Shown: positions 3,001-18,516, counted from the first letter of the stretch. The stretch is DNA of 64,000 nucleotides from a bacterium (GCA_017645765.1 JAGCNV010000016.1:36316-100315), one strand, 5' to 3'. Program-made: numbers and translations. Notes: generated by a model not told the origin, from the letters alone.

Positions 3001-4773
3001 GGTAAGAACGGAAACCGGATCAAGCTCTATAGTTTTGCTGTCATCGCCGAGAGCGCTGCCGACTTTGCAGGTATCGCACCCTTCATTTTGCTCAGTAGTA
3101 CCTTCTTCTGCACAGATCAGTTCCTGACAGCAGTGGTTCGGATCCTGGTCGAATTCGCTGTAGTAATCAAGGACACAGTCGTAATTCGGGTTGCAGCAGC
3201 TCGGATCATCATTCGGTTTATTCTGATAATCACAGGTTTCTTCATAAGAGGAGCAAGTTCCTATCAGATGTCCGTCCACTGTTCCCTGTTTTGTTTTGCA
3301 GTTTGCATCGTTGTCCCTGCAGTGTGGGTTCGTACACTGCGTTGCCTTGCAGCACTTTTTATTCATTGAGAAAGCGTAAGTGCCGAGAAGTTTATCCGAC
3401 GGAGTCTCCTTCGAACCTTTGTAGTTCGAGCATTTCGTTTCGACGAAAGAACCGGTTCCGTCACCGTTGCCCTTCCAGATCATACATCTGCCGCATGTTG
3501 ACGAAGCAGTCGTTGTCGTAAGTTCAGGATACGACACTGAATCACTGCATGAAGTATCTTCGTTGTCTGGTATTCCGCAGCCATACTCCTGACTGGTATA
3601 AATCGAAAAATTATCTTCCATGCTGAAGTTGTTGCATTTGCTTGCCTGGAACGCCTTCGGATCCTCAGAATCCTGAGCCGATTCACCGCTTGACGGAGTT
3701 TTCAGTTCTGCCTCCCAGAGCGAATCTATCGCTTCGCGCAGAGACTCCAGTTCGGCTTCACGGACACTTTCATCAACACCCGACAAAGTCGGATCAAAAG
3801 CAACAAAGCATGTATTTTTATCAACCATGACAGCCTGACCGTCCTGCGTAACAGGATTTCCGCTGGCATCAGTCTGCTGTTCCTGATATGTATTTTTAGG
3901 TTTGTAGGTGGTTTTGTGACACTTGTTCGATCCTCTGGTTCTCGGCTGGACTGAAAAAGAGTGGACGTCGCCGAGAATTATTTTCAAAGCATCAAGCGAT
4001 GTCGTATATTTCCAGTTGAGCCAGTGTCCGCTTACACCGGTAACACTAAGACGGTAGGTCGTATTTCCGACTTTCATCTTGTCGCTTCCGTCAGTAAGGC
4101 AGTCCCAGTCGCTTCTGTCGGCGATAAAACCTCCGCTCGACTCCTTGAAACTGTCATACTGCGCGTCATTCATTCCCAGCTTTTCCTTATTGTAGTCATC
4201 AGCCGAAGAAGTCCCTTCAAGAACATCGCCGTGCGTATCGGCAGTCCAGTCGTAGAAACAGATATCGTCCTTATATGTTTTGTTCGGATTCCAGGGACCT
4301 ACATACTTCTTCATTTCATTGGTACTCGGGGAAGTATTGAAACGGTCAGGTTCAGGATATACGTCTTCAGAAATCTTTCTGCAGTGACTGTGCAGCTTGT
4401 CTTTAACGGTTTCGATCTGCTTGCATTTTGACTTTACGTCACCGCAGTTAAGATCGACGTCGCACATCGCGTTGTTTTCGACGTTACGGCACTGGTTGTA
4501 GGCATTGTTGCAGAGCGCCAGCGCTTTCTCCAGGTTTGCTTCGCCGTCCTTGCACGTATCGGTGTAGTCACTGTACGCGAAAGAGCTCATGTTGTCCGAC
4601 GAATCGACGATGAAAATCTGGTGGGGCATCTTCTTCGAACTCGTAATCATAGCCGCGACATCGTCTTTGAGAGAGTCGGAAATCGTAACACCTTCTGCTG
4701 CGATAGAAAAACACAACAGAACATTAACAAAAAAGGCTAAAAAAAGTTTGCCTGGAAACGTACTTTTTCTCAT
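1..4773 (-). CDS. PilY1-like type IV pilus tip-associated adhesin, 3'-partial. More than 1590 aa with a signal peptide, a vWA MIDAS-like DSSDNMS motif, and a Cys-rich body.
   Basis: Hand translation of the minus strand from the ATG at 4771-4773 (revcomp ATGAGAAAAAGTACG, GGGGTGG RBS 5 nt upstream) runs in frame to position 1. The track lists no minus ORF in this frame and omits edge-truncated ORFs. The N-terminus MRKSTFPGKLFLAFFVNVLLCFSIAAE is a signal peptide. HQIFIVDSSDNMS is a DxSxS motif. It is the last gene after the pilV/W/X-like genes, as in fimU-pilVWXY1 operons. Confidence 0.6.
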   Translation of the reverse strand, partial: MRKSTFPGKLFLAFFVNVLLCFSIAAEGVTISDSLKDDVAAMITSSKKMPHQIFIVDSSDNMSSFAYSDYTDTCKDGEANLEKALALCNNAYNQCRNVENNAMCDVDLNCGDVKSKCKQIETVKDKLHSHCRKISEDVYPEPDRFNTSPSTNEMKKYVGPWNPNKTYKDDICFYDWTADTHGDVLEGTSSADDYNKEKLGMNDAQYDSFKESSGGFIADRSDWDCLTDGSDKMKVGNTTYRLSVTGVSGHWLNWKYTTSLDALKIILGDVHSFSVQPRTRGSNKCHKTTYKPKNTYQEQQTDASGNPVTQDGQAVMVDKNTCFVAFDPTLSGVDESVREAELESLREAIDSLWEAELKTPSSGESAQDSEDPKAFQASKCNNFSMEDNFSIYTSQEYGCGIPDNEDTSCSDSVSYPELTTTTASSTCGRCMIWKGNGDGTGSFVETKCSNYKGSKETPSDKLLGTYAFSMNKKCCKATQCTNPHCRDNDANCKTKQGTVDGHLIGTCSSYEETCDYQNKPNDDPSCCNPNYDCVLDYYSEFDQDPNHCCQELICAEEGTTEQNEGCDTCKVGSALGDDSKTIELDPVSVLTATDPYIVCGADSDSDTCTGIAATVYIDNQAAIDFNYVDNIKVEVYYGCVGETGKPSIPFGSAVCQSASDCPSISGTLDGCSETGYRMRAVVTLTRNNCKYGSLNLSVNLKYSFDEGYKTQSVDPKTIFDPTKELYQVFEYQTSSSAKKVFEYECKVAFYNRETAVISGGSCPSASQAPNYLNQNREGSRVEYCESRTIEREVLARDQWGTATKVACSWLCRAAEVYDDPWKCQSFFYMTDAQEFNGINSCMEDQCTVDDVSKIEDCCRCINSEQGLYYHHQTPVGVNMSSKVSQGSNPKPCPNNHCVCAVSIYQYATTSNGGRTESSGYQAEIVNGHINEGSTPGYYNLVPYLDFKDSDNPTSPYDGWYHNYSLLYSENGSKYLRDSLTSMFTTNDAAVRTPTCVYDVLWGWTGTDCDTTCTSGCCSVDLSQNSNDCDYPTFWMKIPKGDGGRLVMPALDLTNPSNITKFQQELLALKAIGGSTLGETLYDAWRYLGGMYALYDGEYKTKRYTSPYAAAAPECNSNEAIIISGGQPQYDHNDRLNGKGVAGDKVSCKPFSDTAADAENPCVTPTDTNPHQLAPYETKDWYNSSLLNVSAFVNSTSHSFWGKEECRAQSVDENPKGCDPSAVGLTGANVPRIDRVHSIAIGEWGLSAMYDTLKSSGTGGSTGSFMDESFMERVATQTKGSDNVKGKYFGLTASTNASGTSEGGNFNDLTSLFAAFASKSRDSDVVVGRPHWTSSLVQAYDVEEKYRGPDAYVAGTVPVDGSVSRFWFGNLKKYNVDGGSECPITDDTDANCGEWKKQDFDAKDCFAEGQDSGTDFSGSDSESVDQYKKLMIGGAAFKLEKKIKEGACSSVPCYKTSKRKIYYDENKKGFISLLKDVDPGSNYLYNKFREGNNLENPDVRKILDYMAGYDSFDDDNDGDDKNVRYTKDWFTTSTGEKTKTFEVDDPFNIDFNKKTKLTLRPLLLGAIVHSKPVAVLYDDENTTRIFAGANDG

Positions 4774-4792: not shown

Positions 4793-5446
4793 CTAATTAC
4801 CATTATCTTCATCATTAATCGGTCTGTTTTCACCGTCTCTCGAGAAGCAGCTGATCAAACCTATCGTCTTCATTTTTCCGAGAGAGAAGTTCGGTTTACC
4901 CTGAATTTTATTGGTCTCGTCCTTGAAAGTTACGTAGTTGGCCGAACCGACGTAAATAACTTCCCTGACGTCGACCGTTATATCATAGCAGGCATTTTTG
5001 TCTCTGCCGTAAATTGCCGTACTGTCAGGATTCAGACCGTACACTTTTGCAGTTTCGCTGGTCGTCAGCCTTCTTGCGACCGCACGGTATGCGAATTTGA
5101 CATCGTCAGCAACAGATGCCGATGAAATGTCACCGCACGGATAGTATCTGAAACTTCCGTCATTCTCCGTCGTGCTGCCGCCCATACCGTTACCTATCGC
5201 ATAAGCGTCTTCGAACTGATAGGTCGAATCAATGAGAGAACGCATCTCGCCGTTTACGATGTTTACGGCTGAATAGGCGAACGTCAGAAGTCTTCTGTCC
5301 TGAAGATCCTTACCTGTCGTATGAGCTGTTTCCGAAAGTCTCGCCATCGTGGCAAGCGCAATGATCGAAAGGCTCATCGTCATCAGAACGCTGATGAAAA
5401 GCGCCACACCTAAGTGTTTTTTGTCAATTAAATCAAACATTTGCAC
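4793..5446 (-). CDS. PilX-like type IV pilus minor pilin/assembly protein
   Basis: 217 aa with an N-terminal hydrophobic segment (GVALFISVLMTMSLSIIALA) typical of the PilX N-domain. It sits between the PilW-like and PilY1-like genes. Confidence 0.5.
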   Translation of the reverse strand: MQMFDLIDKKHLGVALFISVLMTMSLSIIALATMARLSETAHTTGKDLQDRRLLTFAYSAVNIVNGEMRSLIDSTYQFEDAYAIGNGMGGSTTENDGSFRYYPCGDISSASVADDVKFAYRAVARRLTTSETAKVYGLNPDSTAIYGRDKNACYDITVDVREVIYVGSANYVTFKDETNKIQGKPNFSLGKMKTIGLISCFSRDGENRPINDEDNGN

Positions 5447-5453
5447 CTCTCAA

Positions 5454-6533
5454 CTAATTACCGGCATGATCTTTGAGATAGCGATAGTTCGAAAGATATA
5501 CGACCCGGCTGAAAACCGAAGCGGTGTAACTCAAACTATTCTTCAAATTATCAAACTGATAGCAGTATTTATTGTTAGAACCCGTGTCGACACTGAAAAT
5601 ACAGTATCTCGGCATATCTGAGGTCGAGCCTTTATCTCCTTTTGATATTCTTTCTTTTTTGGAAAGAAGAACAAAACCGAACCTTACCGCAACAATGTCC
5701 TTTATATGGTCTTTAGGATAGTCGGTACCGTTCGGGAGCCATTTTCTGCAAATATCCTTCCCGCATTCCCACTCTCCGAGGAATTCGATTACGAATTTCG
5801 GCATTATGTAAAAATTATCACTTTTATTACTTTTATATGAGAAATTTATCAGATTTCCTTCGCCTGAATTGTCCTTTTTCTTGTAGTCGAGCTTAAGATA
5901 GTTGTCGGAAAGACTGGGATTGTACTTCAAGTTATAAATAAAGTCTTCTCCCGTAACAAGCGAACCTACCGGAAAAACATCCCTGCAGGTGTCGCTGCCG
6001 CTTCCCGGAGCAGTTCCGTTGAAACCGCTGACTTTCACGGTAACTCCGTCCTCGCCGTAAGTAACATTAGAAGAACTAATCTGAGAAGTTTCATAAAGGC
6101 CGTTCTGGTTGTGAAAATAGAGTTTGTCGATCGATTTGTAGAAAGATGCACTGTTGAAAAGCTTGAATTCGCAGCCGTCGGAAATCGGAGTAGACGGAGA
6201 AACCGCCACTTTAGTAACAGGAGATCCGAAAGGTGAAAGATATTCGAATTCCATAATGGACTGTTCCGTATCGATTTTGCGGATAATACCGTTTCCGTCG
6301 TCCCTGAAATCGGATGCCACACTGTTGAGACCTATCAGGCGGAAAGATTCCGAAAGAGAGTCCAGAATCTGTTCGCCCATCAGATTCTCGGCAACGCGTA
6401 TCGATGCAGAACGCTCTGTTCTGAGAGAAGCTTCATACAACTTATAAAAAGAGGCGATGATCGTTATGGTTATAAAAATGCTGACCATAAGTTCGATAAT
6501 AGTAAAAGCCTTGAAACAATTGACTTTTTTCAT
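5454..6533 (-). CDS. PilW-like minor pilin (prepilin-type N-terminal cleavage/methylation domain)
   Basis: Leader MKKVNCFKA followed by FTIIELMVSIFIT, a class III signal with Glu at +5. 359 aa. Confidence 0.6.
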   Translation of the reverse strand: MKKVNCFKAFTIIELMVSIFITITIIASFYKLYEASLRTERSASIRVAENLMGEQILDSLSESFRLIGLNSVASDFRDDGNGIIRKIDTEQSIMEFEYLSPFGSPVTKVAVSPSTPISDGCEFKLFNSASFYKSIDKLYFHNQNGLYETSQISSSNVTYGEDGVTVKVSGFNGTAPGSGSDTCRDVFPVGSLVTGEDFIYNLKYNPSLSDNYLKLDYKKKDNSGEGNLINFSYKSNKSDNFYIMPKFVIEFLGEWECGKDICRKWLPNGTDYPKDHIKDIVAVRFGFVLLSKKERISKGDKGSTSDMPRYCIFSVDTGSNNKYCYQFDNLKNSLSYTASVFSRVVYLSNYRYLKDHAGN

Positions 6534-6542
6534 GCCAGCCTC

Positions 6543-7082
6543 CTAATAAGCCCTGTTGGAGCGCACAAGCGGAATTGAGAGCGTATTGCAGTTTGCATCG
6601 AAATCACCGCCGTTGTTGTTCTTACACGAAAATCCGCCGTGTCCCATTTTCGGCCAGTAAACGGAAACTTCGACTTCATAGAGAGTCGAAAGATAGGTGC
6701 CGCCTATGACATAAGTTCCGGTTGCCGCTGAATAAGGTTTTATTACAATATTTCTGTAAAATGCGTAACTTGCAGTACCCGTCATATAAAAAGGACTTAT
6801 TTTGTAGGATGATCCGAAATATTTTTTATCCTGCAGAGTGCTTTCCTGAAGTTTGACGACGGAACCGCCTGTTCCTGCAAGTTCCTTGAACGAGTCGTAG
6901 GACATCGAATTGAACTCTTCGACAAGGTTGAAAGCAAGCGCGTGGGCGAACTGAGCCGATTCGTTTTCAAACAGAACGGACATCGAATGAGCGTGGAAAG
7001 CCATGTAGCCGAGCATCGAAGTTGTAAAAACAAAAATCGAAACCATGACTTCCATCAGGGTAAAAGCTTTGTTCTTTCGCAT
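6543..7082 (-). CDS. PilV-like minor pilin (prepilin-type N-terminal domain)
   Basis: Leader MRKNKA followed by FTLMEVMVSIFVF. 179 aa. Confidence 0.6.
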   Translation of the reverse strand: MRKNKAFTLMEVMVSIFVFTTSMLGYMAFHAHSMSVLFENESAQFAHALAFNLVEEFNSMSYDSFKELAGTGGSVVKLQESTLQDKKYFGSSYKISPFYMTGTASYAFYRNIVIKPYSAATGTYVIGGTYLSTLYEVEVSVYWPKMGHGGFSCKNNNGGDFDANCNTLSIPLVRSNRAY

Positions 7083-7094
7083 ATTCCCTCCTAC

Positions 7095-7850
7095 CTAAAT
7101 ATCAAGCAGTGCGGCACTGGTACCGGCAAAATCGCTGTAACCTACAGAAGGTTTGTTGGAAAAAACCGTGCAGATCGAATATTCGCCTCTCTGGTCTATA
7201 TCAAGACGATACCAGATCGAATCGTTGGATCCTGTCGAGATCTTCGAACGTATAATGGCGGAAAAAACGATATCGGGAAGAGTATTTGCAGCAACAGCGC
7301 TTCCGCACTTGCCGTTCTGAGGGTCGGCGCCGCTTACGAAATATCCGCCTTTCGTCTTTATCTTTCCGTTTGAATTAAAGTTCAGCAGAGTACTGAAACC
7401 GGTCAGCGAATCGTCTTCGTTGACAACTTCTATCGTGATCATGTTCGGAAGTTTGTTCTGTTTCAGCATAGTCGTGTTGGCATCGGCAGCATCCCAGGTA
7501 TCAGTATTCATCGACTGCTTCTGGTAAATCGCATATTCCGATTTTCTGAAGACCATTGCAGTCTGGCGGCGGATACCCATATAAACAGACATTTTGCCGC
7601 TATCATCATCACTTTCTTCGGCATCGACATTTGTCGGAATCTTGATACTGTTGTTGCTGGTACCTACGACCGTGTATCCCGCAACCGATCTCGCCTTGGA
7701 AAAATCGGAAAGAATTTCCATAACCGTCTGCAAACCGCGGTTTCTGGCATTCCAGACCTGGACCTTGGGAACCGCAACAGTTGCAACTACCGTCAGAATC
7801 CCCAAAGTGATCATCAACTCAAGCAATGAAAAACCGTTTGTCTTTCTCAC
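7095..7850 (-). CDS. GspH/FimT/FimU-like pseudopilin
   Basis: The track ORF begins at a TTG at 7865. A GTG at 7848-7850 with a GGAGG 5 nt upstream gives leader (M)RKTNG followed by FSLLELMITLGILTVV, a typical short prepilin leader. Confidence 0.55.
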   Translation of the reverse strand: MRKTNGFSLLELMITLGILTVVATVAVPKVQVWNARNRGLQTVMEILSDFSKARSVAGYTVVGTSNNSIKIPTNVDAEESDDDSGKMSVYMGIRRQTAMVFRKSEYAIYQKQSMNTDTWDAADANTTMLKQNKLPNMITIEVVNEDDSLTGFSTLLNFNSNGKIKTKGGYFVSGADPQNGKCGSAVAANTLPDIVFSAIIRSKISTGSNDSIWYRLDIDQRGEYSICTVFSNKPSVGYSDFAGTSAALLDI

Positions 7851-8067
7851 GTCAGCCTCCGTCAAACATCAACTCGATTTTTTTATTAAATATACAAATA
7901 AATTTCGTCCGCCTGTGTAGAAAAGAACCTCAAACAACCGCCGAAAAAGTACGGCTGTGTAGATTCGTACCATGTTTTTGAAATAAAATCAAGAATTTAA
8001 GCGATTTTTATTTTTTTCACTTTTCAAGCATATTTTTTGTCGTTTTTTTATGCTTTTTTTGTTGATT

Positions 8068-10734
8068 TTATCTTTTTTCCTGAATTTCCTTCCGGTACTC
8101 GCTCGGAGTTTTTCCGGTCCATTTCTTGAAGATCGGATTGAAAGTGCTCTTCGATTTGAAACCCGCTTCGAGGAGAAGTTCAAGAACGCTTTTGTCATCG
8201 AATTTCGGATCGCGCATCATTGAAACCACCTCTTCCAAACGGTACGAATTGACGAAATTATAGAAAGTCTGACCGCAGTAACCGTTCAGGACATAGGAGA
8301 GTGTATTTGCCGAAAGCCCCAGTTTTTTCGCAAGCTTAGGCAACGTAAGATCCGGATTTTTATAGAGTTTTTCTTTTTCCATCAGATCAGTTGCCTCTTT
8401 CGCATAGGCTGCTGCGATCTCGTCGTCAAGCTGATAACCCTCATATTTCTGCTTTTCTTCAACTTCGTCAGCAGCAGGATCGAAAATGTCTTCAGAAGCA
8501 GCCGTTTCTTCAGTTTCTCCGGTTTCATCGCATTCGGACTCTACGGAATTATCCTGCAAATCAGGCATGTTATCATCATTTCCACTTTCTACGGCAGAAT
8601 CCTGTTCCGCGGACACAGCATTCTCCCCTCGCCCAACTATTTCTCCCTCGCCACTCTGGAGAGGGTCAGGGTGAGGTCCGGGCTGGGGGTGAGGTCCGGG
8701 CTGGGGGTGAGGTCTGGTGTCGGGGTGAGGTCTTCTCACCACAAAAATCACACAAACCGCTGCCAGACCGGCAAAAACCGCAAAAATCCACAAATAATTT
8801 GATTTTTCTTCGTTTTCAACAATAATAGCTGCACTTTCTTCAGGCACAACCGAATCGAATTTTACAGATTTTCTCCCCTCTTTCTTCAAAACTGCGACTC
8901 CTTCAAGGGTCGGGAACCACAGATCGCCGTTTTTTCTCTTCAAAACAGAGGGCTGGACTCCTCCTGTCGATTCCGGTCTGCGGATTCCGTCTGACGCATC
9001 GAACGGAGTGCATGAAAGCCGCGCGTTTTCACTTTGCGCCGCCGCCAGGAGCTCGTTCCTGGGAATAGAAAAAATGCCGTTTGTGCTTGAAAACCAGAGA
9101 TTTCCGCTTTCATCGGCTGTAATTCCCAGAATCGTGTCGCTGCAGAGCCCTTTCCGCGAATCAAGCTGCTTGAATTTCATGTCAGGAAATATCAAAGTTA
9201 TGCCGCGGTGCATCGAACCTACAAGAACGATATCGTTTTCATCGACATAGAGACTGACCGGGACATTTCCGGTAACGCCATGATTTATTTCATGAAATTC
9301 ATCATTTTTATCGAGCTGCCAAAGCCCCTGCGAAGCAGCAAACCATAGATTTCCGGCGTTATCCTGCGCAATTGCCGAAACAAAATCTGAATCGTCACCG
9401 AATTTGCGGAGAAGATGCCACCCTTTTGCCGTGTTCAAGTATATCGCGCCGCCGCCGCCGCCTGCCCAAAGACGGGATTTTCTGTCGCGGAAAATGACAC
9501 CCACAGCATTCACACGAACATCGTTTTCGCTTTTCATCTTCTTGAAAACATTGGGTTTTTCCGGAGAAAGCGAAATTATTCCTGAAGTCGTTCCTACAAG
9601 AATGCTCCCGTCGTCGTTTTTAAACAGTCCGCCGACAAAACGTCCGATATCGCCTTTTCTGTCCCTGACATATCTGAACTGTCCGTTCTCGTAGACGAAA
9701 AGTCCGCCGCCGCGCGTTCCCGTCCAGACTCTGCCGGCATCATCCTCGACAAGTGCGTAGACTTTTTCGGAAAAAAGCCCCGATTCGCGCCCCAGAGTCA
9801 TGAATTTTCCAGGATAAAAAAGGGTGATCCCGCGGCTGCCGGCCAGCCAGACAAAAGCGCCGTCAAGCATGACTTCCGAAACGGAACCGGCATCGGCACA
9901 GAAAGCGCCGCACGGCTTCAGCACGCCGTTTTCCGCAAAAAAGAGGGCGCCGTCCGAGACAAAAGCAGCTGTTCCGCCCTGAAAATCGAGCGAAGTCACC
10001 GCCTTACGCGACTCAGTTTTCGCGATTTTCCAGCATTTTCCGTTCTTTATCTCAAAAACAGTTCCTTCGGCCGTTCCGGCAAAAACCCTCCCCTCTTTCG
10101 CCTTTCCGGCGGTTACAGGCGAAGAATTTCCGGCACAGAGATTTTCCGAAAAACCGCTTTCTCCCCAAGCCCTGACTTCCCCGTTTTCAAAACCGGCGTA
10201 GAGCTCTGTTCCGTCCGAAAAAACAGCGGAAAGAGAACTTTCAGGGAAAGCGGACAAATCACTTAACATTACGATTTTATTGGATTTTATCATAATTATT
10301 TCTTTAGCCGAGGCTGCAAAAAGAGTGCAGTCATCAAAAGCTTCGATATCAAAAATCCCGCGCATTTCGACAACTTTCGAGATTTTTTTACCGAAGCCGG
10401 AAATTTCGGAAATTCCCATCGGAGTTGCAACGAAAACTTTTCCGCTGCACCCAGTCAAATCATTGATTTTATTGCTTAAAATCGCAGAATTTGTGCTTTT
10501 GCTGAAAATTTCGGACGAATTTGAATCGATCCTTACAAGCCCTTCGACCGTCCCTGCCCAGAGCAGACCGTTTTCGTCCCGGTACAAAGAAGTAACGCTG
10601 TTGTGAGGCAGCCCCGATGCGGAAGTCCACGAGCGGGAGGCCGAGTAGAAAAAATCCTGAAGCAGTGAAGGGTCTCCGAAAATCGTGAAGGAAAATAAAA
10701 ACAGAGTTGAGAAAAATAAAAAACGCCCAAACAT
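8068..10734 (-). CDS. Membrane one-component regulator. Domain order: signal peptide, periplasmic two-component-regulator propeller (Reg_prop repeats, Y_Y_Y-like), one TM helix, Pro/His repeat plus acidic linker, C-terminal AraC-family HTH.
   Basis: Repeated G-x-hWhGT-x-x-GL motifs (NGLLWAGTVEGLVRID, GRVWTGTRGGGLFVYENG, SRLWAGGGGGAIYLN, GNLWFAASQGLWQLD, GNLWFSSTNGIFSI). TM helix YLWIFAVFAGLAAVCVIFVV. C-terminus LSANTLSYVLNGYCGQTFYNFVNSYRLEEVVSMM...KSKSTFNPIFKKWTGKTPSEYRKE is AraC-type. No kinase or receiver domains are present. Confidence 0.7.
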   Translation of the reverse strand: MFGRFLFFSTLFLFSFTIFGDPSLLQDFFYSASRSWTSASGLPHNSVTSLYRDENGLLWAGTVEGLVRIDSNSSEIFSKSTNSAILSNKINDLTGCSGKVFVATPMGISEISGFGKKISKVVEMRGIFDIEAFDDCTLFAASAKEIIMIKSNKIVMLSDLSAFPESSLSAVFSDGTELYAGFENGEVRAWGESGFSENLCAGNSSPVTAGKAKEGRVFAGTAEGTVFEIKNGKCWKIAKTESRKAVTSLDFQGGTAAFVSDGALFFAENGVLKPCGAFCADAGSVSEVMLDGAFVWLAGSRGITLFYPGKFMTLGRESGLFSEKVYALVEDDAGRVWTGTRGGGLFVYENGQFRYVRDRKGDIGRFVGGLFKNDDGSILVGTTSGIISLSPEKPNVFKKMKSENDVRVNAVGVIFRDRKSRLWAGGGGGAIYLNTAKGWHLLRKFGDDSDFVSAIAQDNAGNLWFAASQGLWQLDKNDEFHEINHGVTGNVPVSLYVDENDIVLVGSMHRGITLIFPDMKFKQLDSRKGLCSDTILGITADESGNLWFSSTNGIFSIPRNELLAAAQSENARLSCTPFDASDGIRRPESTGGVQPSVLKRKNGDLWFPTLEGVAVLKKEGRKSVKFDSVVPEESAAIIVENEEKSNYLWIFAVFAGLAAVCVIFVVRRPHPDTRPHPQPGPHPQPGPHPDPLQSGEGEIVGRGENAVSAEQDSAVESGNDDNMPDLQDNSVESECDETGETEETAASEDIFDPAADEVEEKQKYEGYQLDDEIAAAYAKEATDLMEKEKLYKNPDLTLPKLAKKLGLSANTLSYVLNGYCGQTFYNFVNSYRLEEVVSMMRDPKFDDKSVLELLLEAGFKSKSTFNPIFKKWTGKTPSEYRKEIQEKR
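8667..8735 (-). repeat. 18-bp tandem repeat (ggggtgaggtccgggctg x about 4) encoding a P-H/P-Q-P-G repeat (HPQPGPHPQPGPHPDP) in the cytoplasmic linker of the regulator
   Basis: Direct reading of the DNA and of the protein repeat. Confidence 0.8.
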
Positions 10735-10823
10735 GACGGCATTGTAAAAATCTGATTTTTTTTGGCAAGTTTTGTCGTTCTTGTCGCCGCCGCCGAAAAT
10801 CAGAATCGTTGTTATCGTTATTT

Positions 10824-10894
10824 CGATTCGCCGCCTTTCGATATTTCGAGATTACGAAAATTCGATATTTCGACAAAAAAGATTGGCGGCGGCG
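10824..10894. repeat. Intergenic palindromic element: GC stem (cgccgcc ... ggcggcggcg) enclosing two copies of ttcgatatttcga(g/c)
   Basis: Seen directly. A related element lies at 53091..53147. Confidence 0.6.
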
Positions 10895-10997
10895 TCAAGA
10901 AGAATGACCGTTACATCCAAAAAACTGGATTTTTTTCTTTTTTTGGTTAAAATACATTGGTTTTTTAAAATTCAGTTGTTTTATATAGGAGTTTCAA

Positions 10998-13900
10998 ATG
11001 AAAATTTTCAAGATTCTGGTTTGTCTCATGTTTGTTTTTGCCATTTCCGCGTGTCATGACAAAAAAACTACTTACGATTATCCAGACGAGGATCCTACAA
11101 CTGCCGAAAAAGGCAATGTCGGCGATCCGTGCCAGAAAAACCCTGACTGTAAAGAGGGTCTTTTCTGCATAGACAAGGTGTGCAGCGAACCTGTTGAAGA
11201 CGAAGACCAGATCAATGATCCGGACGAAAATCCGGAAAATGACGAAGACATTTCAGATACCGAACCGACGGACGATTCGGATACAGACACAAATGTGCCC
11301 GACACGAACCCGACAGACGATTCAGATACTGCGGTTCCTGACAAGGACGAACCGGAAGATACCGATACTCAGCCGGATGAAGACGCTGATATTCCCGATT
11401 ACACTCAGGAATGCGGCAACGGCATCCGCGATCAGGGCGAAGAGTGCGACAACGGTGCCGAGAACAGCGATGAACCCGGAATTCCCGGAATCACCTGCCG
11501 AACCGACTGCCTTTTTGCAAGATGCAGAGACGGCATTGTCGATTCAGGCGAACGCTGCGACGACGGTAATGCTTCGACCGGCGACTACTGCAGCCCCGAC
11601 TGCCAGACAATAACCGGTTACTGCGGCGACGGTGTCCAGCAGACAAACGAAAACTGCGATCCCGTCATCGAGCCGTACTGTGCTGATGACTGTTCAGGAA
11701 TCGCGGGATACTGCGGCGACGGCATAAAGCAGCCTCACGAGAAATGCGACAACGCCGAACCAGGCGAAGGCGGCGGCGAAGGAATCGGACCTTATTACTG
11801 CAGCATAGACTGTCAGGGAATCATGGGTTCATGCGGCGACGGCCGGCTCCAGGAGAATGAAGCATGCGATGACGGCAGCAAAAACGGCCGTTACGGCTAC
11901 TGCAATGCGACATGCTCAGGCGACGGTCCGAAATGCGGTGACGGAAAGACTGACCTCGGCCACGAAGCATGCGACGACGGCAACACTCTGGACGGAGATT
12001 ACTGCTCGGCAGACTGCCAGACTTCAAACGGAAGATGCGGCGACGGTATAAAACAGGATTTCGAGGTTTGCGACAATGCAACTTACGGCGAAGGAAAAGG
12101 TTTATACTGCGACGACGACTGCCAGACAGACCACGGTACATGCGGTGACGGCGTTATTTATGAAGAAGCTGGCGAAGAATGTGACGATGGAGGAAGCAAC
12201 AACCTTATATACTGTCCTTACAGCATAAATATGACCACCTGCACGCTGTGTTCCGCCTCATGTCATCCCAAAGAAGGCATCCCGAGATACTGCGGCGACG
12301 GCGTTGTAAGCAACCTCGCAGGCGAAGAGTGCGACAAGGCGAATTTCGGAGACGGAACAGGACCTTACTACTGCTCGGATGACTGCATGAAAGTCATAGG
12401 TTCATGCGGCGACGGCGTAAAACAGCCCAACGAAGCATGTGATCCGGGGCTTGATCCGTACTGCTCTTCCGACTGCAAAAAATCTGAAGGTGAATGCGGC
12501 GACGGCACGAGAAACGGCAGCGAAGAGTGCGATAACGGCGCAGACAACGGCAAAACGGACTGCGAGTACGGCCTGACAAGCTGCAAAGTCTGTACGACTT
12601 CATGCACCGAAACCGACGGAAAAGCGCATTACTGCGGCAACGAATCGCTTGATCAGGGCGAAGAGTGCGATGACGGCAACGAAAACGGAAATTACGGAAA
12701 ATGCAACAGCGACTGTTCAGGTCCCGGCAAGCACTGCGGCGACGGAAACATTGATTCCGAAAACGGCGAAGTCTGCGACAACGGCGCAGACAACGGCAAA
12801 AAGGACTGCGAGTACGGCCTGACAAGCTGCAAAGTCTGCACGACTTCATGCACCGAAACCGACGGAACAGCAGCTTACTGCGGCGACGGCAAACTAAACC
12901 GCGAAAACTGCGACGGTTATGAAAACTGTGTTGTTACCGCCGGCGTAAACGAAACCTGCGACGACGGAATAAACGACGGCCAGTACGGACACTGTCTGCC
13001 AGGCTGCTACGGTGCAGGACAACGCTGCGGTGACGGTGAAGTAAACGGCAGCGAAAAATGCGACGACGGCGATGAAGAAAACGGAAATTACGGAAAATGC
13101 AAAACAGACTGCTCAGGTCCTGGCGAACGCTGCGGCGACGGAACAATCCAGACTGAACACGGTGAAGTCTGCGACGACGGTGAAGACAACGGAACTTACT
13201 CGCTGAATGCGCCCGGACACTGCAATTCAGACTGCAAAGGATACGGAGAAGGCGGAATATGCGGTGACGGAACACAACAGCCGGAAGAAGCTTGTGACAG
13301 AGGTGAAGACCTCAACGGACGCGAATCGTGCGCTTACGGCCAAACAAGCTGTGAGGTATGCTCCACAAGATGCACACTTACAGCCGGCAAAACTGCATAC
13401 TGCGGCGACGGACATCGGGATTCCGACTACGAGGAATGCGACAGAGGTGCCGAAAACGCAGACTACAATGCTCCATGCAACACTGAATGCTCCGGCGTTC
13501 CGCCGAAATGCGGCGACGGAAATATCGACGAAACATTCGGTGAAACCTGCGATGACGGTGAAGACAACGGAACTTATCTCTTCGAACAACCCGGATCCTG
13601 CAACAGCAACTGCCAGGGTCAGGGCGAAGGCGGATGGTGCGGCGACGGCACGCAGAACGGCGGCGAAAGCTGCGATGCCGGTATACTCAACAACGGCGCG
13701 TACGGCGGACTCTGCGACACAACATGCAGCGGAAGCCCCACTTACTGCGGCGACGGAAAAATACAGAGCAGAGCGCTTTGCACTGCTGATGACGAGACTC
13801 TTGAGGCAAACGGCTACTTAAATCAGAACGATTTCCTGCTTCAGAACGGATTCAATGATGTAGAAGCCTGCCTGGCTCAACTTACCGATGCAAACGAAGT

Positions 13901-16382
13901 ATGTGACGAAGGCGACGGATTAAACGGAACTTACGGTCACTGCAACAGCGAATGCTCGGCAATACTTAAATGCGGAGACGGAATAATCCAGAGCGGAAAC
14001 GGCGAAGAGTGCGACAGCGGCGATGCAAACGGCACGACAGACCAGTGCGCGTACAACGAAACAAGCTGCAAACTCTGCAATGCTCAATGTAAGGAATTCA
14101 ACGGTCAGACTTCATACTGCGGCGACGGGATCGTCGACGAAGATGTCGAGGACTGCGACGACGGCGAAGAAAACGGAAGTTACGGAAACTGCAAATCAGA
14201 CTGTTCCGGACCGATGCCGAAATGCGGCGACGGAAATGTCGACGGCATATACGGCGAAGTCTGCGACGAAGGCTCAGACCTCAACGGAACCTACGGACAC
14301 TGCAGTTCAGGATGCCGCGGAATATCCGAATGCGGCGACGGAATACAGCAGGCGGAAGAGGCGTGCGATAACGGCGAGCCGTTTAACGGAACTTACGGAA
14401 ACTGCAGATCAGACTGCTCCGGAATTACCGGTTACTGCCAAGACGGAATTTTGCAGAAAGCTGCCTGCGGAGGAGAAGAAGGCTGTATCGAGATCCCGGG
14501 TGCCAATGAACAGTGCGATAACGGCGCGGACAACGGCAATACGAAATGTAACTACGGCGAAACAAGCTGCTATGTCTGCACGACTTCATGCCAGCTGACA
14601 AGCGGAACTGAGATTTCATACTGCGGCGACGGAAATGTCGACGGCATACACGGTGAACTCTGCGACGACGGTGAACTCAACGGAACTTTCGGCAAATGCG
14701 ACGAAAGATGTCTGGAAACGGTAACCTGGAGATGCGGTGACGGAAATCCTGATTTCGCTCACGGCGAGACCTGTGACGACAGCGACGGAGTAAACGGAAC
14801 CTATATTCTGGAGAAACCGGGAACCTGCAACTCTGACTGTAAAGAAAGAGGAGCAGGCGGATTCTGCGGCGACGGAATAATCCAGAGTGAACACGGCGAA
14901 ACCTGCGACGACGGTGAAAACAACAACACTCAGGGATTCTGCAACAGCACATGCAACGGGCAGACACCGGTCTGCGGCAACGGAATCGTTGATGCCGGCG
15001 AATTCTGCGATGACGGTGAAAACAAAAACAAATACGGAAAATGCAACGACGACTGCAGCGGTTACGGCACCAGCGGTTACTGCGGTGACGGAATAGTCCA
15101 GAAAAGCACTGATGCCGAGTGCACAGAGTATATTGCGGAAGATCCGGTCAACCGTAAACTTTGTGATGAAACAATAACGACAAACTGCTGCAAAGTCGTT
15201 GAGTTCGCAGCAGGCGATGCTTCCGAGGCATGCGATGACGGCGACGATAACGGACTGTCCCACGATCACTGCAACCAGCTCTGCAGCGGCATTTCATACT
15301 GCGGTGACGGTTTGGTAGGTAAAGATGAAGTGTGCGAAAGAATATGCGTAAGTTACGCAGAAGATCCGAACGATTGTCTTCTTTATGCAGCAAATTTTGC
15401 AGCATCAGTATACAAGAACTGCAGCCTTTTCCCGCAGTTCTCAAGCGGTGAAGTAACTGAATGCAACAGCGAATGTATGCCTGTCCTTACAAGCTGCGTG
15501 AATAACGATGCCTACAGAAGTCCGTTCTTCAACACTAACCAGACGATCTGCTACGACAATTCGGATGACATAACCTGCCCGGCAGAAGCTGAAGATTTCT
15601 ACGGCCAGAGCCCGCAGTTCCTGTATCTCGAGCAGGATTTTGAGGTCAACGGCGGAATAACTTCCGAAGCGGTTTCAAATACGGAATGGCAGACAGAGAC
15701 TCCTGCAACCTACGAAGGCTGTGCTGCCGGAGATTCCTGCACTTACGATGAAGCAGTCAACTACTGCTCGAACCTCGGATTAGGCGGTTACGACGACTGG
15801 AGACTTCCGAGTGCGTTTGATTTCCCGATTATCGCCGATTTCGAAGCGACACCTCATATCCGTTCAGAGTTCACAGATACAAAGAACGATATTTACTGGA
15901 CTGCCGAAGGACTTGCATTCTCGGCAGTCAACGGAACTATGACCGGCGGACACTCGACAGCTCAGGTAAAATGTGTCAGAAAAGCAGGCGAAGAAAGCTG
16001 CCCTGTATGCGGAAACGATCTCGAAATGTTTGAATACAGCGCATCGCTGATAACCGTTTTCAACAAAACAGCCATCGTTATCTGGCATTTCGGGAATCCG
16101 ATGACGAGCGACACATGGCAGCAGGCACTCGATACGTGCAAGAACATCAATATAAACGGTATCAACAGAATGAGACTTCCGACAGCCAGCGAGCTTATAT
16201 CGCTTATTGACGCAACAAACGGCGGTTCGCTGATCCCGGGATTCGCAGAAAGAGCATGGACTTCGACAACTTTGAGCGGCAGTCCGGAAAACAATGCCAA
16301 GGCTTATGTCGTCGACTTTTCGACTTTGAGTCTGGTCACCGATGACAAGACAAACAGCAACTATATAATTTGTGTTGAATAG
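10998..16382 (+). CDS. Giant secreted lipoprotein of 1794 aa. Domain order: lipobox, acidic D/T/P linker, about 40 tandem Myxococcus-type cysteine-rich repeats (CGDG-x-GEECDDGN-x-GDYCS-x-C), two C-terminal DUF1566 (Fib_succ_major-like) domains.
   Basis: N-terminus MKIFKILVCLMFVFAISAC. The repeat unit, e.g. CGDGKTDLGHEACDDGNTLDGDYCSADCQ, recurs throughout. C-terminus YDEAVNYCSNLGLGGYDDWRLPSAFDF and INGINRMRLPTASELISLID match the WRLP..EL signature of DUF1566. Confidence 0.85.
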   Translation: MKIFKILVCLMFVFAISACHDKKTTYDYPDEDPTTAEKGNVGDPCQKNPDCKEGLFCIDKVCSEPVEDEDQINDPDENPENDEDISDTEPTDDSDTDTNVPDTNPTDDSDTAVPDKDEPEDTDTQPDEDADIPDYTQECGNGIRDQGEECDNGAENSDEPGIPGITCRTDCLFARCRDGIVDSGERCDDGNASTGDYCSPDCQTITGYCGDGVQQTNENCDPVIEPYCADDCSGIAGYCGDGIKQPHEKCDNAEPGEGGGEGIGPYYCSIDCQGIMGSCGDGRLQENEACDDGSKNGRYGYCNATCSGDGPKCGDGKTDLGHEACDDGNTLDGDYCSADCQTSNGRCGDGIKQDFEVCDNATYGEGKGLYCDDDCQTDHGTCGDGVIYEEAGEECDDGGSNNLIYCPYSINMTTCTLCSASCHPKEGIPRYCGDGVVSNLAGEECDKANFGDGTGPYYCSDDCMKVIGSCGDGVKQPNEACDPGLDPYCSSDCKKSEGECGDGTRNGSEECDNGADNGKTDCEYGLTSCKVCTTSCTETDGKAHYCGNESLDQGEECDDGNENGNYGKCNSDCSGPGKHCGDGNIDSENGEVCDNGADNGKKDCEYGLTSCKVCTTSCTETDGTAAYCGDGKLNRENCDGYENCVVTAGVNETCDDGINDGQYGHCLPGCYGAGQRCGDGEVNGSEKCDDGDEENGNYGKCKTDCSGPGERCGDGTIQTEHGEVCDDGEDNGTYSLNAPGHCNSDCKGYGEGGICGDGTQQPEEACDRGEDLNGRESCAYGQTSCEVCSTRCTLTAGKTAYCGDGHRDSDYEECDRGAENADYNAPCNTECSGVPPKCGDGNIDETFGETCDDGEDNGTYLFEQPGSCNSNCQGQGEGGWCGDGTQNGGESCDAGILNNGAYGGLCDTTCSGSPTYCGDGKIQSRALCTADDETLEANGYLNQNDFLLQNGFNDVEACLAQLTDANEVCDEGDGLNGTYGHCNSECSAILKCGDGIIQSGNGEECDSGDANGTTDQCAYNETSCKLCNAQCKEFNGQTSYCGDGIVDEDVEDCDDGEENGSYGNCKSDCSGPMPKCGDGNVDGIYGEVCDEGSDLNGTYGHCSSGCRGISECGDGIQQAEEACDNGEPFNGTYGNCRSDCSGITGYCQDGILQKAACGGEEGCIEIPGANEQCDNGADNGNTKCNYGETSCYVCTTSCQLTSGTEISYCGDGNVDGIHGELCDDGELNGTFGKCDERCLETVTWRCGDGNPDFAHGETCDDSDGVNGTYILEKPGTCNSDCKERGAGGFCGDGIIQSEHGETCDDGENNNTQGFCNSTCNGQTPVCGNGIVDAGEFCDDGENKNKYGKCNDDCSGYGTSGYCGDGIVQKSTDAECTEYIAEDPVNRKLCDETITTNCCKVVEFAAGDASEACDDGDDNGLSHDHCNQLCSGISYCGDGLVGKDEVCERICVSYAEDPNDCLLYAANFAASVYKNCSLFPQFSSGEVTECNSECMPVLTSCVNNDAYRSPFFNTNQTICYDNSDDITCPAEAEDFYGQSPQFLYLEQDFEVNGGITSEAVSNTEWQTETPATYEGCAAGDSCTYDEAVNYCSNLGLGGYDDWRLPSAFDFPIIADFEATPHIRSEFTDTKNDIYWTAEGLAFSAVNGTMTGGHSTAQVKCVRKAGEESCPVCGNDLEMFEYSASLITVFNKTAIVIWHFGNPMTSDTWQQALDTCKNININGINRMRLPTASELISLIDATNGGSLIPGFAERAWTSTTLSGSPENNAKAYVVDFSTLSLVTDDKTNSNYIICVE

Positions 16383-16392
16383 GAGATTTACC

Positions 16393-17646
16393 ATGAAATC
16401 AGAAAAAATTTTCTCTTTTTTCCTTCTTCTTGCGGCACTTGTTTTCTGTATAAGCTGCGGCGGCAAAGGCGGCAAATACGACGATCCGGATGATTTCGAC
16501 GCCGTTGACACAGAAGACAAAGATAATCCCGCTCCTGTTACGGATGAAGACACTGACGATAACGGCGACACTGAACCGGACGATTCCGACACTGAACCCG
16601 ATGTAGACGACGACAACCCGGAAATTCCGGATGACACTGACGATAATGACAATCCGCGTCCGGACAGAGATGAGTCAGATTCAGACGAAGAACCTGTTCC
16701 CGACGAAGACAATCCTATTGAACCTTCAGACACAGACTCGATTTCACACAAAGAGGATTCTGAAATAGTCTGCACAGGTCAGACAAAATGCTATAATTCG
16801 AGTGAGGAAATCACATGTCCTTCCACTTCTGACGAGGATTTCTTCGGTCAGGATGCGCAGTATGCCAGCAAAGGTTACTGCTTCCCTAAAAGTTTGGATG
16901 CAAGCAATCCGCAAATCATTACGGACAACAACACCGGATTAGTCTGGCAGAGAAAGATTCCTGCGACTTACGAAGGCTGCACCGGCAACGATGGAGCTTA
17001 CTGTCTTTATCAGCAGGCACTAAATTTCTGTGAAAATCTCACACTCGAAAATTTCGACGACTGGAGACTTCCTACACCTGAAGAATTTGCAACGATCATT
17101 GATTACGGAAGAACTCCGGCTATAAACAAAGAAATTTTCTCGATTCCGAACACTTTATTCCGGGATTTCTGGACTCTGACAGGTTTATATGTCGATTTTA
17201 CGAAAGGAAGCACAGAATCAGGAGACAGCAGTGCAAAACTTGTAAGATGCGTCAGAGGAGACTTTCAGCTTCCGGTCGCCGATTTCACAATTACAAATGA
17301 GGGTAGTGACGAAGAAATCGTTGAGGATTCCGCTCATAATCTATATTGGACAAAAATAGAAAGCGAAGAAGCTCTCAAATGGAAAAAGGCTTTGAATTAC
17401 TGTAATAAACTCAATTACGGAGACAACTCAGGCTGGAGGCTTCCGAGCATCAACGAACTTGCATCAATCCTTGATTATTCGGCCTCGGAACCGGCTTCAA
17501 AATTTCCTTCACTCTCTTCGACTTCATTCTGGTCATCGACTTCCTACAACGAAAGCCCCGACTACGCATGGCGAATCAATTCTTCAAACGGCACGATAGA
17601 AACCGGCAAAAAAACCAAAGAAGCTTCGGTCATCTGCGTCAAATAG
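16393..17646 (+). CDS. Lipoprotein with acidic linker and two DUF1566/Fib_succ_major-like domains (smaller paralog of the preceding gene)
   Basis: AGGAGA sits 8 nt upstream of the ATG at 16393. The track start at 16372 overlaps the previous stop, so it was not used. Signal MKSEKIFSFFLLLAALVFCISC, then D/E/T/P-rich linker, then NFDDWRLPTPEEFATII and NSGWRLPSINELASILD. Confidence 0.75.
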   Translation: MKSEKIFSFFLLLAALVFCISCGGKGGKYDDPDDFDAVDTEDKDNPAPVTDEDTDDNGDTEPDDSDTEPDVDDDNPEIPDDTDDNDNPRPDRDESDSDEEPVPDEDNPIEPSDTDSISHKEDSEIVCTGQTKCYNSSEEITCPSTSDEDFFGQDAQYASKGYCFPKSLDASNPQIITDNNTGLVWQRKIPATYEGCTGNDGAYCLYQQALNFCENLTLENFDDWRLPTPEEFATIIDYGRTPAINKEIFSIPNTLFRDFWTLTGLYVDFTKGSTESGDSSAKLVRCVRGDFQLPVADFTITNEGSDEEIVEDSAHNLYWTKIESEEALKWKKALNYCNKLNYGDNSGWRLPSINELASILDYSASEPASKFPSLSSTSFWSSTSYNESPDYAWRINSSNGTIETGKKTKEASVICVK

Positions 17647-18516
17647 TTATTTTCCCTGATTTTTCTCAGTTTTAGTCTTTTTAAACAGCATAAAACCGCC
17701 GATAAAAAGAAAAATCGAAATCCACTGACTTGTTGAGAAAATCAAAAAACTTCCTCTTGTGTCAAAACGGAGAAATTCGATCAAAAAGCGGGTTACGGAA
17801 TACGAAAGAAGAAAAACAGACGAAATATAGCCTGGATTTTTGGGATTTTTCGATAAAGCGAGCTTTAAAAGGACAACAAATATCACGAAATTGCTGAAAG
17901 AATGAATAAGCTGCGTCGGGATTACCGGCTGCGTGTCGGACAAAAGATTCGTGTGATCGGGATCAAGGTGGTAAAGAGCAAACATCGTTCTTGAGCCCTG
18001 CGGAAAACGGATTCCGAAAATCTGCGATGGTATTCCGAAGCAGCAGCCTTCAAGAAAGCAGCCTATACGAGTGAGCCAGAGTCCGTTGGCGACACAAATA
18101 GAAGCGGCATCGGCAGTTTTAAGGAACGCGGTCCGGTCATGCGGATAAACGGCAAGAGTGCCGAGCGCACCAGCTAAAAATCCTCCGAGAAGCCCGCCGT
18201 AAAAAACATGTCCCGGAGTAAACGGATTGAGCATCCTCATAAAAAGATAGCTTATTCCGTTTTCCTTCAAACCTTCGATATAAGTCGGAAGCATCCCTTC
18301 AAAAAGTATGTGGAAAACTTTGGAAAAGAGCAGTGCACACGGAACAATTACGAGCGGTAGAAAAAACATTTTCTTAAAACTCAGACCAAACTGCTTTGAA
18401 GAAAAAATCATTATCGGCAGCGTCATGAAAAACGAAAAAAAGAGGATCGTCATGTATGCGCCGGGATAAGGAAATCCTAAGTAATCGAATATCGGCCTGA
18501 AAATATCGGGATTCAT
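17647..18516 (-). CDS. lgt: Prolipoprotein diacylglyceryl transferase-like membrane protein
   Basis: 289 aa polytopic membrane protein with a YGGLLGGFLAGALG segment and a G/C-rich RIGCFLEGCCFGIPS motif resembling the Lgt signature. 4-bp overlap with the upstream gene. Confidence 0.55.
   Translation of the reverse strand: MNPDIFRPIFDYLGFPYPGAYMTILFFSFFMTLPIMIFSSKQFGLSFKKMFFLPLVIVPCALLFSKVFHILFEGMLPTYIEGLKENGISYLFMRMLNPFTPGHVFYGGLLGGFLAGALGTLAVYPHDRTAFLKTADAASICVANGLWLTRIGCFLEGCCFGIPSQIFGIRFPQGSRTMFALYHLDPDHTNLLSDTQPVIPTQLIHSFSNFVIFVVLLKLALSKNPKNPGYISSVFLLSYSVTRFLIEFLRFDTRGSFLIFSTSQWISIFLFIGGFMLFKKTKTEKNQGK

Follow-up and report, generated by a model that had tools for sequence, protein, structure and literature searches.

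A transmembrane one-component AraC-type regulator encoded between a Cys-rich lipoprotein operon and a candidate pilus-tip operon in an uncultured rumen bacterium

Introduction

Transmembrane transcriptional regulators (TTRs), in which a DNA-binding domain and a transmembrane (TM) helix share one polypeptide without phosphorelay domains, form a widespread class; in a published survey their most frequent DNA-binding domain was HTH_18, and Reg_prop and Y_Y_Y ranked high among the remaining domains (PMC10269533). In TfoS, a signal sequence and a large periplasmic domain are followed by a single TM helix and an AraC-type helix-turn-helix (HTH); chitin oligosaccharides activate the protein, which binds directly to DNA (PMC3903286). 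Here we describe a protein of this kind in a 64,000-nt stretch of bacterial DNA (GCA_017645765.1 JAGCNV010000016.1:36316-100315; hereafter the window, with positions counted from its first letter). The 888-aa transmembrane one-component regulator, called REG (8068..10734, minus strand), is encoded divergently from a 1794-aa lipoprotein, CYS (10998..16382, plus strand), which is followed by a smaller lipoprotein paralog, LCL417. The start codons of REG and CYS are separated by 263 bp (10735-10997), and the coordinates, lengths and gap given for this pair in an original prediction, made from the DNA alone, were reproduced exactly.

The products of both flanks of REG have described counterparts. 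The C-terminal domain (CTD) of the Legionella protein Lcl is a C-type-lectin-like, glycosaminoglycan-binding head carried on a repeat stalk, and the protein is an adhesin (PMC11162425). Four minor pilins together with PilY1 form the priming/tip complex of the type IV pilus (PMC7541494), and in Pseudomonas aeruginosa control of the minor-pilin/PilY1 operon lies with FimS-AlgR, a membrane sensor system (PMC5979040). In the window, five genes on the same strand as REG follow it beyond a 217-bp spacer, and they were overlooked in the original prediction. Because this pilin/PilY1 operon adjoins REG on the side away from CYS, REG sits between two surface-protein operons. The locus is best explained as a surface-adhesion gene cluster of an uncultured rumen bacterium of the candidate phylum UBP6.

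Results

Domain organisation of REG

REG begins with a signal or anchor (aa 1-20), followed by a double β-propeller sensor of the Reg_prop type, assigned to the periplasm (aa ~30-620; 8875..10647, minus strand). After the TM helix (aa 646-665) comes a cytoplasmic low-complexity tether rich in proline and acidic residues (aa 666-749; 8488..8739, minus strand), in which RPHPDTRPHPQPGPHPQPGPHPDP is followed by an acidic tract. The C-terminal part is an AraC/XylS-type DNA-binding domain with two HTH motifs and a conserved preceding helix (aa 750-888; 8071..8487, minus strand). Pfam matched Reg_prop (E 2e-23), HTH_18 (E 3.3e-18) and HTH_AraC (E 8.3e-10) in REG and gave no match to HisKA, HATPase_c or Response_reg; NCBIfam contributed nothing further than generic matches to the AraC family and a weak one to PorZ, a double-propeller protein.

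The AlphaFold (AF2) model of REG, built on an alignment of 43 homologs, has a mean predicted local distance difference test score (pLDDT) of 80. The propellers (aa 30-620) are mostly above 85, residues 663-759 are disordered (pLDDT <50), and the AraC helices span residues 770-886. The TM helix is supported by both the model and the hydropathy profile, which shows the N-terminal signal or anchor, this one TM helix and nothing else. In a Foldseek search against the PDB, the top matches were the periplasmic domains of Bacteroides hybrid two-component systems (HTCS), with E-values from 3e-32 to 1e-27; this set includes BT4663 (4a2l/4a2m, E 3e-32), BT3049 (3v9f) and BT4673 (3ott/3va6), and the sequence identity between REG and the solved HTCS sensors is 17-18%. 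Pfam, AF2 and Foldseek thus agree with the original prediction of a protein in which a single TM helix links an HTCS-type sensor to an AraC HTH, and which has neither kinase nor receiver. Y_Y_Y (PF07495), which had also been named for the domain check, is absent from REG by Pfam, and in the model only ~25 low-confidence residues lie between the second propeller and the TM helix.

With a DNA-binding domain and a TM helix in one polypeptide and no phosphorelay domains, REG is a TTR by definition. Since TTRs are widespread and Reg_prop-TM-AraC proteins occur in unrelated lineages, the design itself is already known; the REG family is an uncharacterised variant of it, without Y_Y_Y, with a long tether, and restricted to one rumen clade. 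Across 16 orthologs the mean identity is 70% in the propellers, 85% in the DNA-binding domain and 13% in the tether, the length of which ranges from 29 to 122 aa. Eight propeller cysteines (aa 95, 135, 199, 233, 274, 278, 530 and 574) are invariant in 17 orthologs. There is one copy of REG per genome, and in the homology search the identity within the family falls from 58% to 25% with no intermediates. A search with the DNA-binding domain alone, made to trace its origin, recovered nothing beyond fragments of orthologs and a small number of short AraC proteins.

In at least one related genome (L031 3001-5486, ENA k141_4439729) REG is split into a 723-aa sensor/TM open reading frame (ORF) and an overlapping 104-aa AraC ORF, and P0052 and P0244, on one 28,114-bp contig, are a second likely case. 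A frameshift error within the low-complexity tether could explain the split ORFs, or the gene could really be divided or be a pseudogene.

A candidate minor-pilin/PilY1 operon

The first gene beyond REG (7095..7850, minus strand) encodes a 251-aa minor pilin from a GTG at 7850, a start codon backed by the alignment; the protein carries the prepilin leader VRKTNG/FSLLELM and matches N_methyl (E 2.6e-6) and TIGR02532. The second minor pilin (6543..7082, minus strand; 179 aa; MRKNKA/FTLMEVM) matches N_methyl (E 3.9e-6) and, weakly, the PilV family TIGR02523. Both pilins exceed the N_methyl cut-off of 21.2 bits, with scores of 27.2 and 26.6. In the third (5454..6533, minus strand; 359 aa) the motif FKA/FTIIELM was read in the sequence. 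A 215-aa protein with a hydrophobic N-terminus and no family match follows (4793..5440, minus strand), in the place that PilX occupies in such operons. The last gene (1..4773, minus strand) crosses the start of the window, which holds the first 1591 of 2117 residues of a PilY1-like protein; the gene is complete on L001. Its product has a long Cys-rich N-terminal part, and two stretches resembling PilY1 hallmarks, LLGAIVHSKPV and GANDGMLHVFD, were recognised by eye.

Conserved spacer and paired repeats upstream of the pilins

The intergenic region between REG and the first pilin (7851..8067, minus strand) is highly conserved in alignments of 8 and 11 loci. Over ~150 bp it is near-invariant in the 11 loci, in most of which the pilins themselves are ~42-57% identical, and it is the most constrained non-coding DNA at the locus. 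A promoter/terminator scan found no terminator-like site on the minus strand between REG and the pilins. Rfam gave no match in the spacer at E<=5, and no conserved RNA fold was found there, RNAalifold returning -2.3 kcal/mol and no supported helices. A riboswitch or structured leader before the pilins was therefore rejected, and the constraint on the spacer is taken to act on the DNA.

Two candidate promoters lie within the spacer. One consists of TTGATT (7992-7987) and TACGAA (7969-7964) separated by 17 nt. The other has a -10 element, TTTAAT (TTTAAT/TATAAT; 7890-7885), with no -35 element, and is followed by the Shine-Dalgarno (SD) sequence GGAGG at 7860-7856. Between TACGAA and TTTAAT lie two 14-bp direct repeats on the minus strand: the distal one, CTACACAGCCGTAC (7949..7962), is an exact match to CTACACAGNCGNAC, and the proximal one, CTACACAGGCGGAC (7907..7920), lies 42 bp from it and overlaps the -35 position of TTTAAT. 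These are the only two exact copies of CTACACAGNCGNAC in the window; the pair is conserved in relatives, with the spacing constant within 1 bp, and CTACACAG repeats were not found in the divergent REG-CYS region. Judged from sequence, a repeat placed at the -35 position of a promoter with only a -10 element has the layout expected of an activator-dependent promoter.

A scan of JGI metagenomes for the paired motif gave eight matches, of which six are orthologous pilin promoters and two are unrelated tandem repeats, and thus yielded no new regulon targets. A match with two mismatches, CTCCACAGCCAAAC, occurs at 43622-43635 (minus strand), in intergenic DNA with a tricorn-like protease gene on one side and an unannotated one on the other. 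This match probably reflects chance, given that about two such matches are expected and four were seen besides the two exact copies.

The divergent REG-CYS region

On the REG side of the divergent region, a promoter-like site was found by promoter scan at 10741..10768 (minus strand), TTGCCA-16 nt-TACAAT, with 10/12 hexamer matches. Both hexamers are invariant in 10 loci, the -10 element as TA(A/C)AAT, and in all ten the -10 element ends exactly 6 nt upstream of the ATG (10734 in the window). The REG start is not preceded by an SD sequence, whereas CYS (AGGAG) and the first pilin (GGAGG) have strong ones. Because the -10 element is only 6 nt from the ATG and there is no SD, the REG mRNA is probably leaderless.

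The block next to CYS (10917..10997, plus strand), which covers its promoter and 5′ untranslated region, is also conserved in the 10-locus alignment. It contains CCAAAAAACTGGATTTTT, A/T tracts, the invariant GGTTTTTTAAAA, two TAAAAT candidates for the -10 element (10948-10953 and 10966-10971) and the SD sequence AGGAG at 10987-10991. Only these two promoter-proximal blocks are conserved; the middle of the region varies in both length and content. In the window it is occupied by an insert (10774..10908) in which a GC-rich inverted repeat, GCCGCCGCC/GGCGGCGGC, surrounds short repeats of the TTCGATAT type. This insert belongs to a family of small dispersed intergenic elements, in which a GC-clamped hairpin surrounds arrayed 8-bp TCGAnnTT units; another copy of the element type is found at ~53090-53150, between unrelated convergent genes. 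In the alignment, relatives either lack the insert or have other sequence in its place, and the lengths of the divergent regions range from 146 to 277 bp. A variable dispersed-repeat insert between the promoter blocks argues against a shared operator whose spacing is constrained.

Two candidates for a shared operator were considered and rejected. The quasi-palindrome AAAAAWCTGRWTTTTT, whose pattern was derived from the same two sites on which it was scored, varies at its centre between species at the REG copy (10 loci); its conserved parts are the REG -35 element, A/T tracts and -10 element, so the promoter explains it. The TTCGATATTTCGA repeats with the GC inverted repeat, taken as an operator array, are absent from three relatives (L004, L007 and L009), and their second copy lies elsewhere. 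No operator-like element was thus found in the divergent region.

CYS and LCL417

CYS starts with a signal and lipobox (aa 1-19), with AISAC at aa 15-19 identified by inspection; the lipobox is kept in nine CYS orthologs as [ILVFT]-[SA]-[SA]-C. An acidic, disordered linker rich in D, E, P and T follows (aa 20-138; ~115 aa in length). The Cys-rich repeats occupy aa 139-~1494 and number 32 units rather than the about 40 first estimated. All 32 open with C[GQR][DN][GE]. There are four cysteines in 22 units, six in seven, eight in two and seven in the remaining one, so that the count is even in 31 of the 32, and the whole protein has 170 cysteines. These even counts are consistent with disulfide pairing.

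The family TIGR02232 (myxo_disulf_rpt) matches CYS with 71.8 bits against a cut-off of 20.8. Pfam DUF4215 (PF13948) did not match this copy at E<=0.01, and it is recorded for many CYS orthologs. No tandem repeats were found in the array at the DNA level, which indicates that it is old and diverged rather than an assembly artefact. CYS is identical to an NCBI nr entry named 'DUF1566 domain-containing protein [bacterium]' and has ~2,500 relatives at E<1e-10, the DUF4215 arrays of which bear many different terminal domains.

At its C-terminus CYS carries two Lcl_C/DUF1566 domains (aa ~1513-1794), matched by PF07603 in two stretches of the last 280 aa (81.8 bits against a gathering score of 34.9). 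A model of aa 1209-1794 has an overall pLDDT of 81.5, with 85-95 over both domains. Foldseek matched this region to the tandem C-type-lectin-like domains of Endo180 (E 1e-3) and to Legionella Lcl-CTD (8q4e; TMt 0.59, 23% identity). The E-values are weak; the model points to a C-type-lectin-like fold for the Lcl_C domains. The fold search found no PDB counterpart of the repeat stalk, and a PDB sequence search with CYS was empty. As modelled, CYS would be a lipid-anchored protein in which an acidic linker and a 32-unit disulfide-type stalk present two lectin-like Lcl_C domains at the tip.

LCL417 (16393..17646, plus strand) is a 417-aa lipoprotein paralog with an acidic linker and two Lcl_C domains, which PF07603 matches as two stretches (E 4e-51; 172.6 bits, gathering score 34.9); it shares 33% identity with the CYS C-terminus. 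The ORF containing it spans 16372..17646 (plus strand), and its likeliest start is the ATG at 16393; its SD sequence AGGAG overlaps the CYS stop codon, the gap between the two genes being 10 nt. TIGR02232, Pfam and the model therefore uphold the Cys-rich stalk, the two C-terminal DUF1566/Lcl_C domains and the downstream paralog that had been read from the sequence. One more protein with an Lcl_C/DUF1566 match (E 1.6e-17; 297 aa) is encoded at 62264-63157 (plus strand), which makes Lcl_C a multi-copy family in this genome.

Synteny, lineage and neighbouring genes

Ten related genomes, in which REG is 58-77% identical, share one gene order: ankyrin protein, ParA-like/HTH_25 protein, Lgt, LCL and CYS on one side of the divergent region, and REG, pilins and PilY1-like protein on the other. 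Five more metagenome loci have the same genes as far as their contigs extend, with REG 54-92% identical where it is mostly present. The divergent REG/CYS arrangement, whose loss in relatives would have spoken against the original prediction, is conserved in every relative examined (at least 15 loci). As a test of a functional module, synteny is nevertheless uninformative, since collinearity extends beyond 20 kb in all of the relatives. Its power is low because the housekeeping neighbours are equally conserved, because the REG family has a gap in identity from 58 to 25%, and because two distant giants with DUF4215 and Lcl_C have no REG-type regulator nearby.

Identical proteins are present on ENA rumen-metagenome scaffolds. 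The related genome records are rumen and gut metagenome-assembled genomes (MAGs), with 'bacterium UBP6_UBA1177' among them as well as several from yak, goat, buffalo and deer; two carry the label 'uncultured Spirochaetales'. NCBI places UBP6_UBA1177 under unclassified candidate phyla, and a rumen study lists UBP6 (genus UBA1177) apart from Fibrobacterota (PMC7820578). A synteny check in Fibrobacterota, as first proposed, would therefore aim at the wrong phylum, the matches being MAGs of candidate phylum UBP6.

Compared with L024 (JGI Ga0310690_10000293), from a related strain, the pilin genes and the DNA upstream of them (6200-8000) show 99-100% nucleotide identity, and REG, CYS, LCL417, Lgt and the ParA-like gene show mostly 80-98%, with a few more divergent windows. 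The breakpoint in identity lies near the 3′ end of REG (~8000). This mosaic suggests a recent recombination or exchange of the pilus-tip cassette.

Lgt, a prolipoprotein diacylglyceryl transferase (17647..18516, minus strand; LGT E 7.6e-33), is convergent with the CYS-LCL417 operon, and the two stop codons abut (17646/17647) with no spacer. In an unrelated genome, GCA_964635035.1 (L022 5649-6527), Lgt is likewise flanked by two giant Lcl_C proteins. Just past Lgt, a 541-aa fusion of a ParA/MinD-like ATPase and an HTH_25 domain (18513-20138, minus strand) occupies the identical place in every related locus that reaches so far, and a 295-aa FHA-domain protein (20891-21778, minus strand) was found, among the related loci, only in L024. 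Elsewhere the window carries two tandem bacterial serpin genes (54791-56221 and 56239-57717, minus strand; Pfam Serpin E 1.7e-101 and 2.4e-92) and a gene for a 407-aa thrombospondin type 3 repeat protein (47811-49034, plus strand).

Discussion

The reading that we favour, tentatively and with slightly less than even confidence, is that REG is a TTR which senses a periplasmic ligand and controls adjacent adhesion genes, with the pilus-tip operon as the better-supported target. The propellers would lie in the periplasm, and the AraC domain, held by the single TM helix and the disordered 29-122-aa tether, would bind DNA from the membrane. Ligand-dependent dimerisation or clustering of the propellers would then bring two DNA-binding domains together, as has been proposed for TfoS. 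Since REG has no folded cytoplasmic transmitter, and since a tether that is both disordered and unconstrained cannot transmit a specific change of conformation, dimerisation or clustering is the most likely mode of signalling and a conformational relay through the tether is unlikely. By analogy with the solved HTCS sensors, the ligand may be an oligosaccharide. The pilin/PilY1 operon, co-directional with REG, would be the most likely direct target, and its product a type IV pilus priming/tip complex. The sequence suggests the 14-bp repeats as the binding sites of REG, and it is from the sequence too that we infer which operon is regulated; the CYS-LCL417 operon may be a second target.

Several observations weigh against this reading. 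The link between REG and the operon draws on sequence context, conservation and precedent, and the ligand class on fold analogy at 17-18% identity with HTCS sensors that have Y_Y_Y, which REG is without. The 42-bp spacing of the repeats exceeds the 21 bp typical of AraC-type tandem sites, and the repeats could bind some other factor. Should the promoter TTGATT-17-TACGAA be the one used, they would fall at +1 and ~+43, in keeping with a repressor or a leader element. As for the operon itself, the third minor pilin scores 16.7 bits for N_methyl (E 0.0055), under the cut-off of 21.2, and the PilY1-like protein reaches 22.3 bits of the 28.1 required for the propeller family PF05567 (T4P_PilY1; E 7e-5). 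The 64-kb window contains no gene for type IV pilus assembly (PilB/C/M-Q or PilD). In addition, the collinearity of more than 20 kb in all relatives takes in housekeeping genes.

It might be argued that REG is instead dedicated to the divergent CYS-LCL417 operon and its own gene, acting at the shared 263-bp region, much as in the 'dedicated sensor-regulator/surface-protein module' of the original prediction. The divergence of REG and CYS in every relative fits this, as do the conservation of both promoter-proximal blocks and the two exact copies of the A/T-tract quasi-palindrome AAAAAWCTGRWTTTTT in the divergent region, with none elsewhere in the window; REG and CYS are both envelope proteins, which would suit TTR control of nearby genes for secreted proteins. 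But the centre of AAAAAWCTGRWTTTTT is unconserved at the REG copy and its conserved parts are promoter elements, the distance between the promoter blocks varies through the dispersed repeat element, and the CTACACAG repeats are not present there. Moreover, the distant DUF4215 and Lcl_C giants lack a REG-type regulator, and Lcl_C proteins are multi-copy in this genome. A dedicated module was thus not established: the whole block is collinear, the pilin operon adjoins REG as well, and the sole operator-like conserved element lies before the pilins. The adhesion to plant polymers put forward in the original prediction is speculative. We therefore regard exclusive control of the CYS side as unlikely. 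Slightly less improbable, though still rather unlikely, is that the adjacency is incidental, REG being a glycan-sensing TTR with targets elsewhere, for example in glycan utilisation, and the flanking adhesin operons being under regulators of their own. The 20-kb block with Lgt, the ParA-like ATPase and the ankyrin protein is collinear in all relatives, so that a conserved neighbourhood is expected without any functional link, and the closest structural relatives of the REG sensor are the Bacteroides HTCS, including the heparin/heparan-sulphate sensor BT4663. Against distant targets stand the confinement of TTRs to the membrane, native-level TfoS needing its target promoter to be recruited there (PMC11856585), the lack of a carbohydrate-utilisation cluster adjoining REG within the window, and the operator-like direct repeat directly downstream of REG.

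A different possibility concerns the output step rather than the target. A ligand or envelope stress might trigger a cut in the tether or TM helix that releases a soluble AraC domain, for which the long, unconserved and protease-accessible tether would be well suited. The relative in which REG is divided into 723-aa and 104-aa ORFs, together with the likely case of P0052/P0244, points the same way, but frameshift errors in such low-complexity sequence may account for these split ORFs, and no protease gene is associated with the locus. Proteolytic release is accordingly less likely than dimerisation or clustering, and we hold it to be very improbable.

Returning to REG as a ligand-sensing regulator of its adhesin neighbours, a more ambitious version can be drawn, which taken as a whole is unlikely. 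As a relative of HTCS sensors that works without a phosphorelay, REG would directly couple a cue in the periplasm to transcription of the genes for the pilus priming/tip complex, and maybe, through a second site, of those for the lectin-tipped lipoproteins as well, making it a single-protein attach-to-substrate switch with a leaderless mRNA and a variable tether. The cue could be an oligosaccharide from plant fibre, or else the amount of the minor-pilin/PilY1 complex itself, which FimS is proposed to monitor. Should REG indeed control the operons on its flanks, it would be a compact and experimentally tractable link from glycan or surface sensing to adhesion, in a phylum represented solely by rumen metagenomes. 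REG would also offer a natural test of TTR signalling through an unstructured tether, the length of which varies four-fold between species, and its sensor, DNA-binding domain and candidate operator are defined enough for synthesis and testing in E. coli, as was done for TfoS. CYS adds an example of the adhesin design in which a repeat stalk carries a DUF1566/Lcl_C head. The rumen is a strongly reducing habitat. The ~150 stalk cysteines at very low redox potential, and the invariant propeller cysteines, raise the question of how, and whether, disulfides form there or are replaced.

Among the known systems, TfoS of Vibrio cholerae (VC2080) resembles REG at the level of topology: the arrangement is the same and there is no phosphorelay, and the TfoS pathway leads to expression of a type IV (competence) pilus. 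TfoS, in contrast, activates a small RNA gene and cooperates with ChiS (PMC11856585), whereas REG lies between adhesin operons in an unrelated candidate phylum. The Bacteroides HTCS (BT4663, BT3049 and BT4673) share with REG the Reg_prop double β-propeller and the C-terminal AraC-type HTH_18. However, they have Y_Y_Y, HisKA, HATPase and receiver domains, all four of which are missing from REG; in REG the TM helix is linked to the DNA-binding domain by a disordered tether, and it is a single-copy protein rather than a member of an expanded family. The uncharacterised proteins P0053 and P0116 from other lineages, encoded on contigs shorter than 4 kb, have a propeller sensor, one TM helix and AraC output without a kinase, and belong to the kind of protein that JGI names 'ligand-binding sensor domain-containing protein/AraC-like DNA-binding protein'. 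They share with REG the juxtamembrane motif KY..(x)L....LMEKEK.Y.(D/N)PD(L/I)TL but are just 19-25% identical to it overall. Unlike REG, they show by eye a Y_Y_Y-like segment before the TM helix, which is not among their Pfam matches, and the juxtamembrane link of P0053 is 15 aa where REG has its long tether.

The flanking operons can be compared in the same way. Legionella Lcl and CYS both consist of a repeat stalk with a C-terminal DUF1566/Lcl_C lectin-like head, but the stalk of CYS is built of 32 Cys-rich repeats of the DUF4215/TIGR02232 type instead of collagen triplets, its Lcl_C domains are two in tandem, and it has an N-terminal lipid anchor. The fimS-algR/fimU-pilVWXY1Y2E locus of P. 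aeruginosa and the clusters of Myxococcus xanthus combine four minor pilins with a large PilY1, as the present locus would. A difference is the PilY1-like protein here, with its 2117-aa length and its long Cys-rich N-terminal part. Finally, where P. aeruginosa uses the FimS/AlgR pair, the candidate regulator here, whose link to the operon is drawn by inference, is a single polypeptide with AraC-type output.

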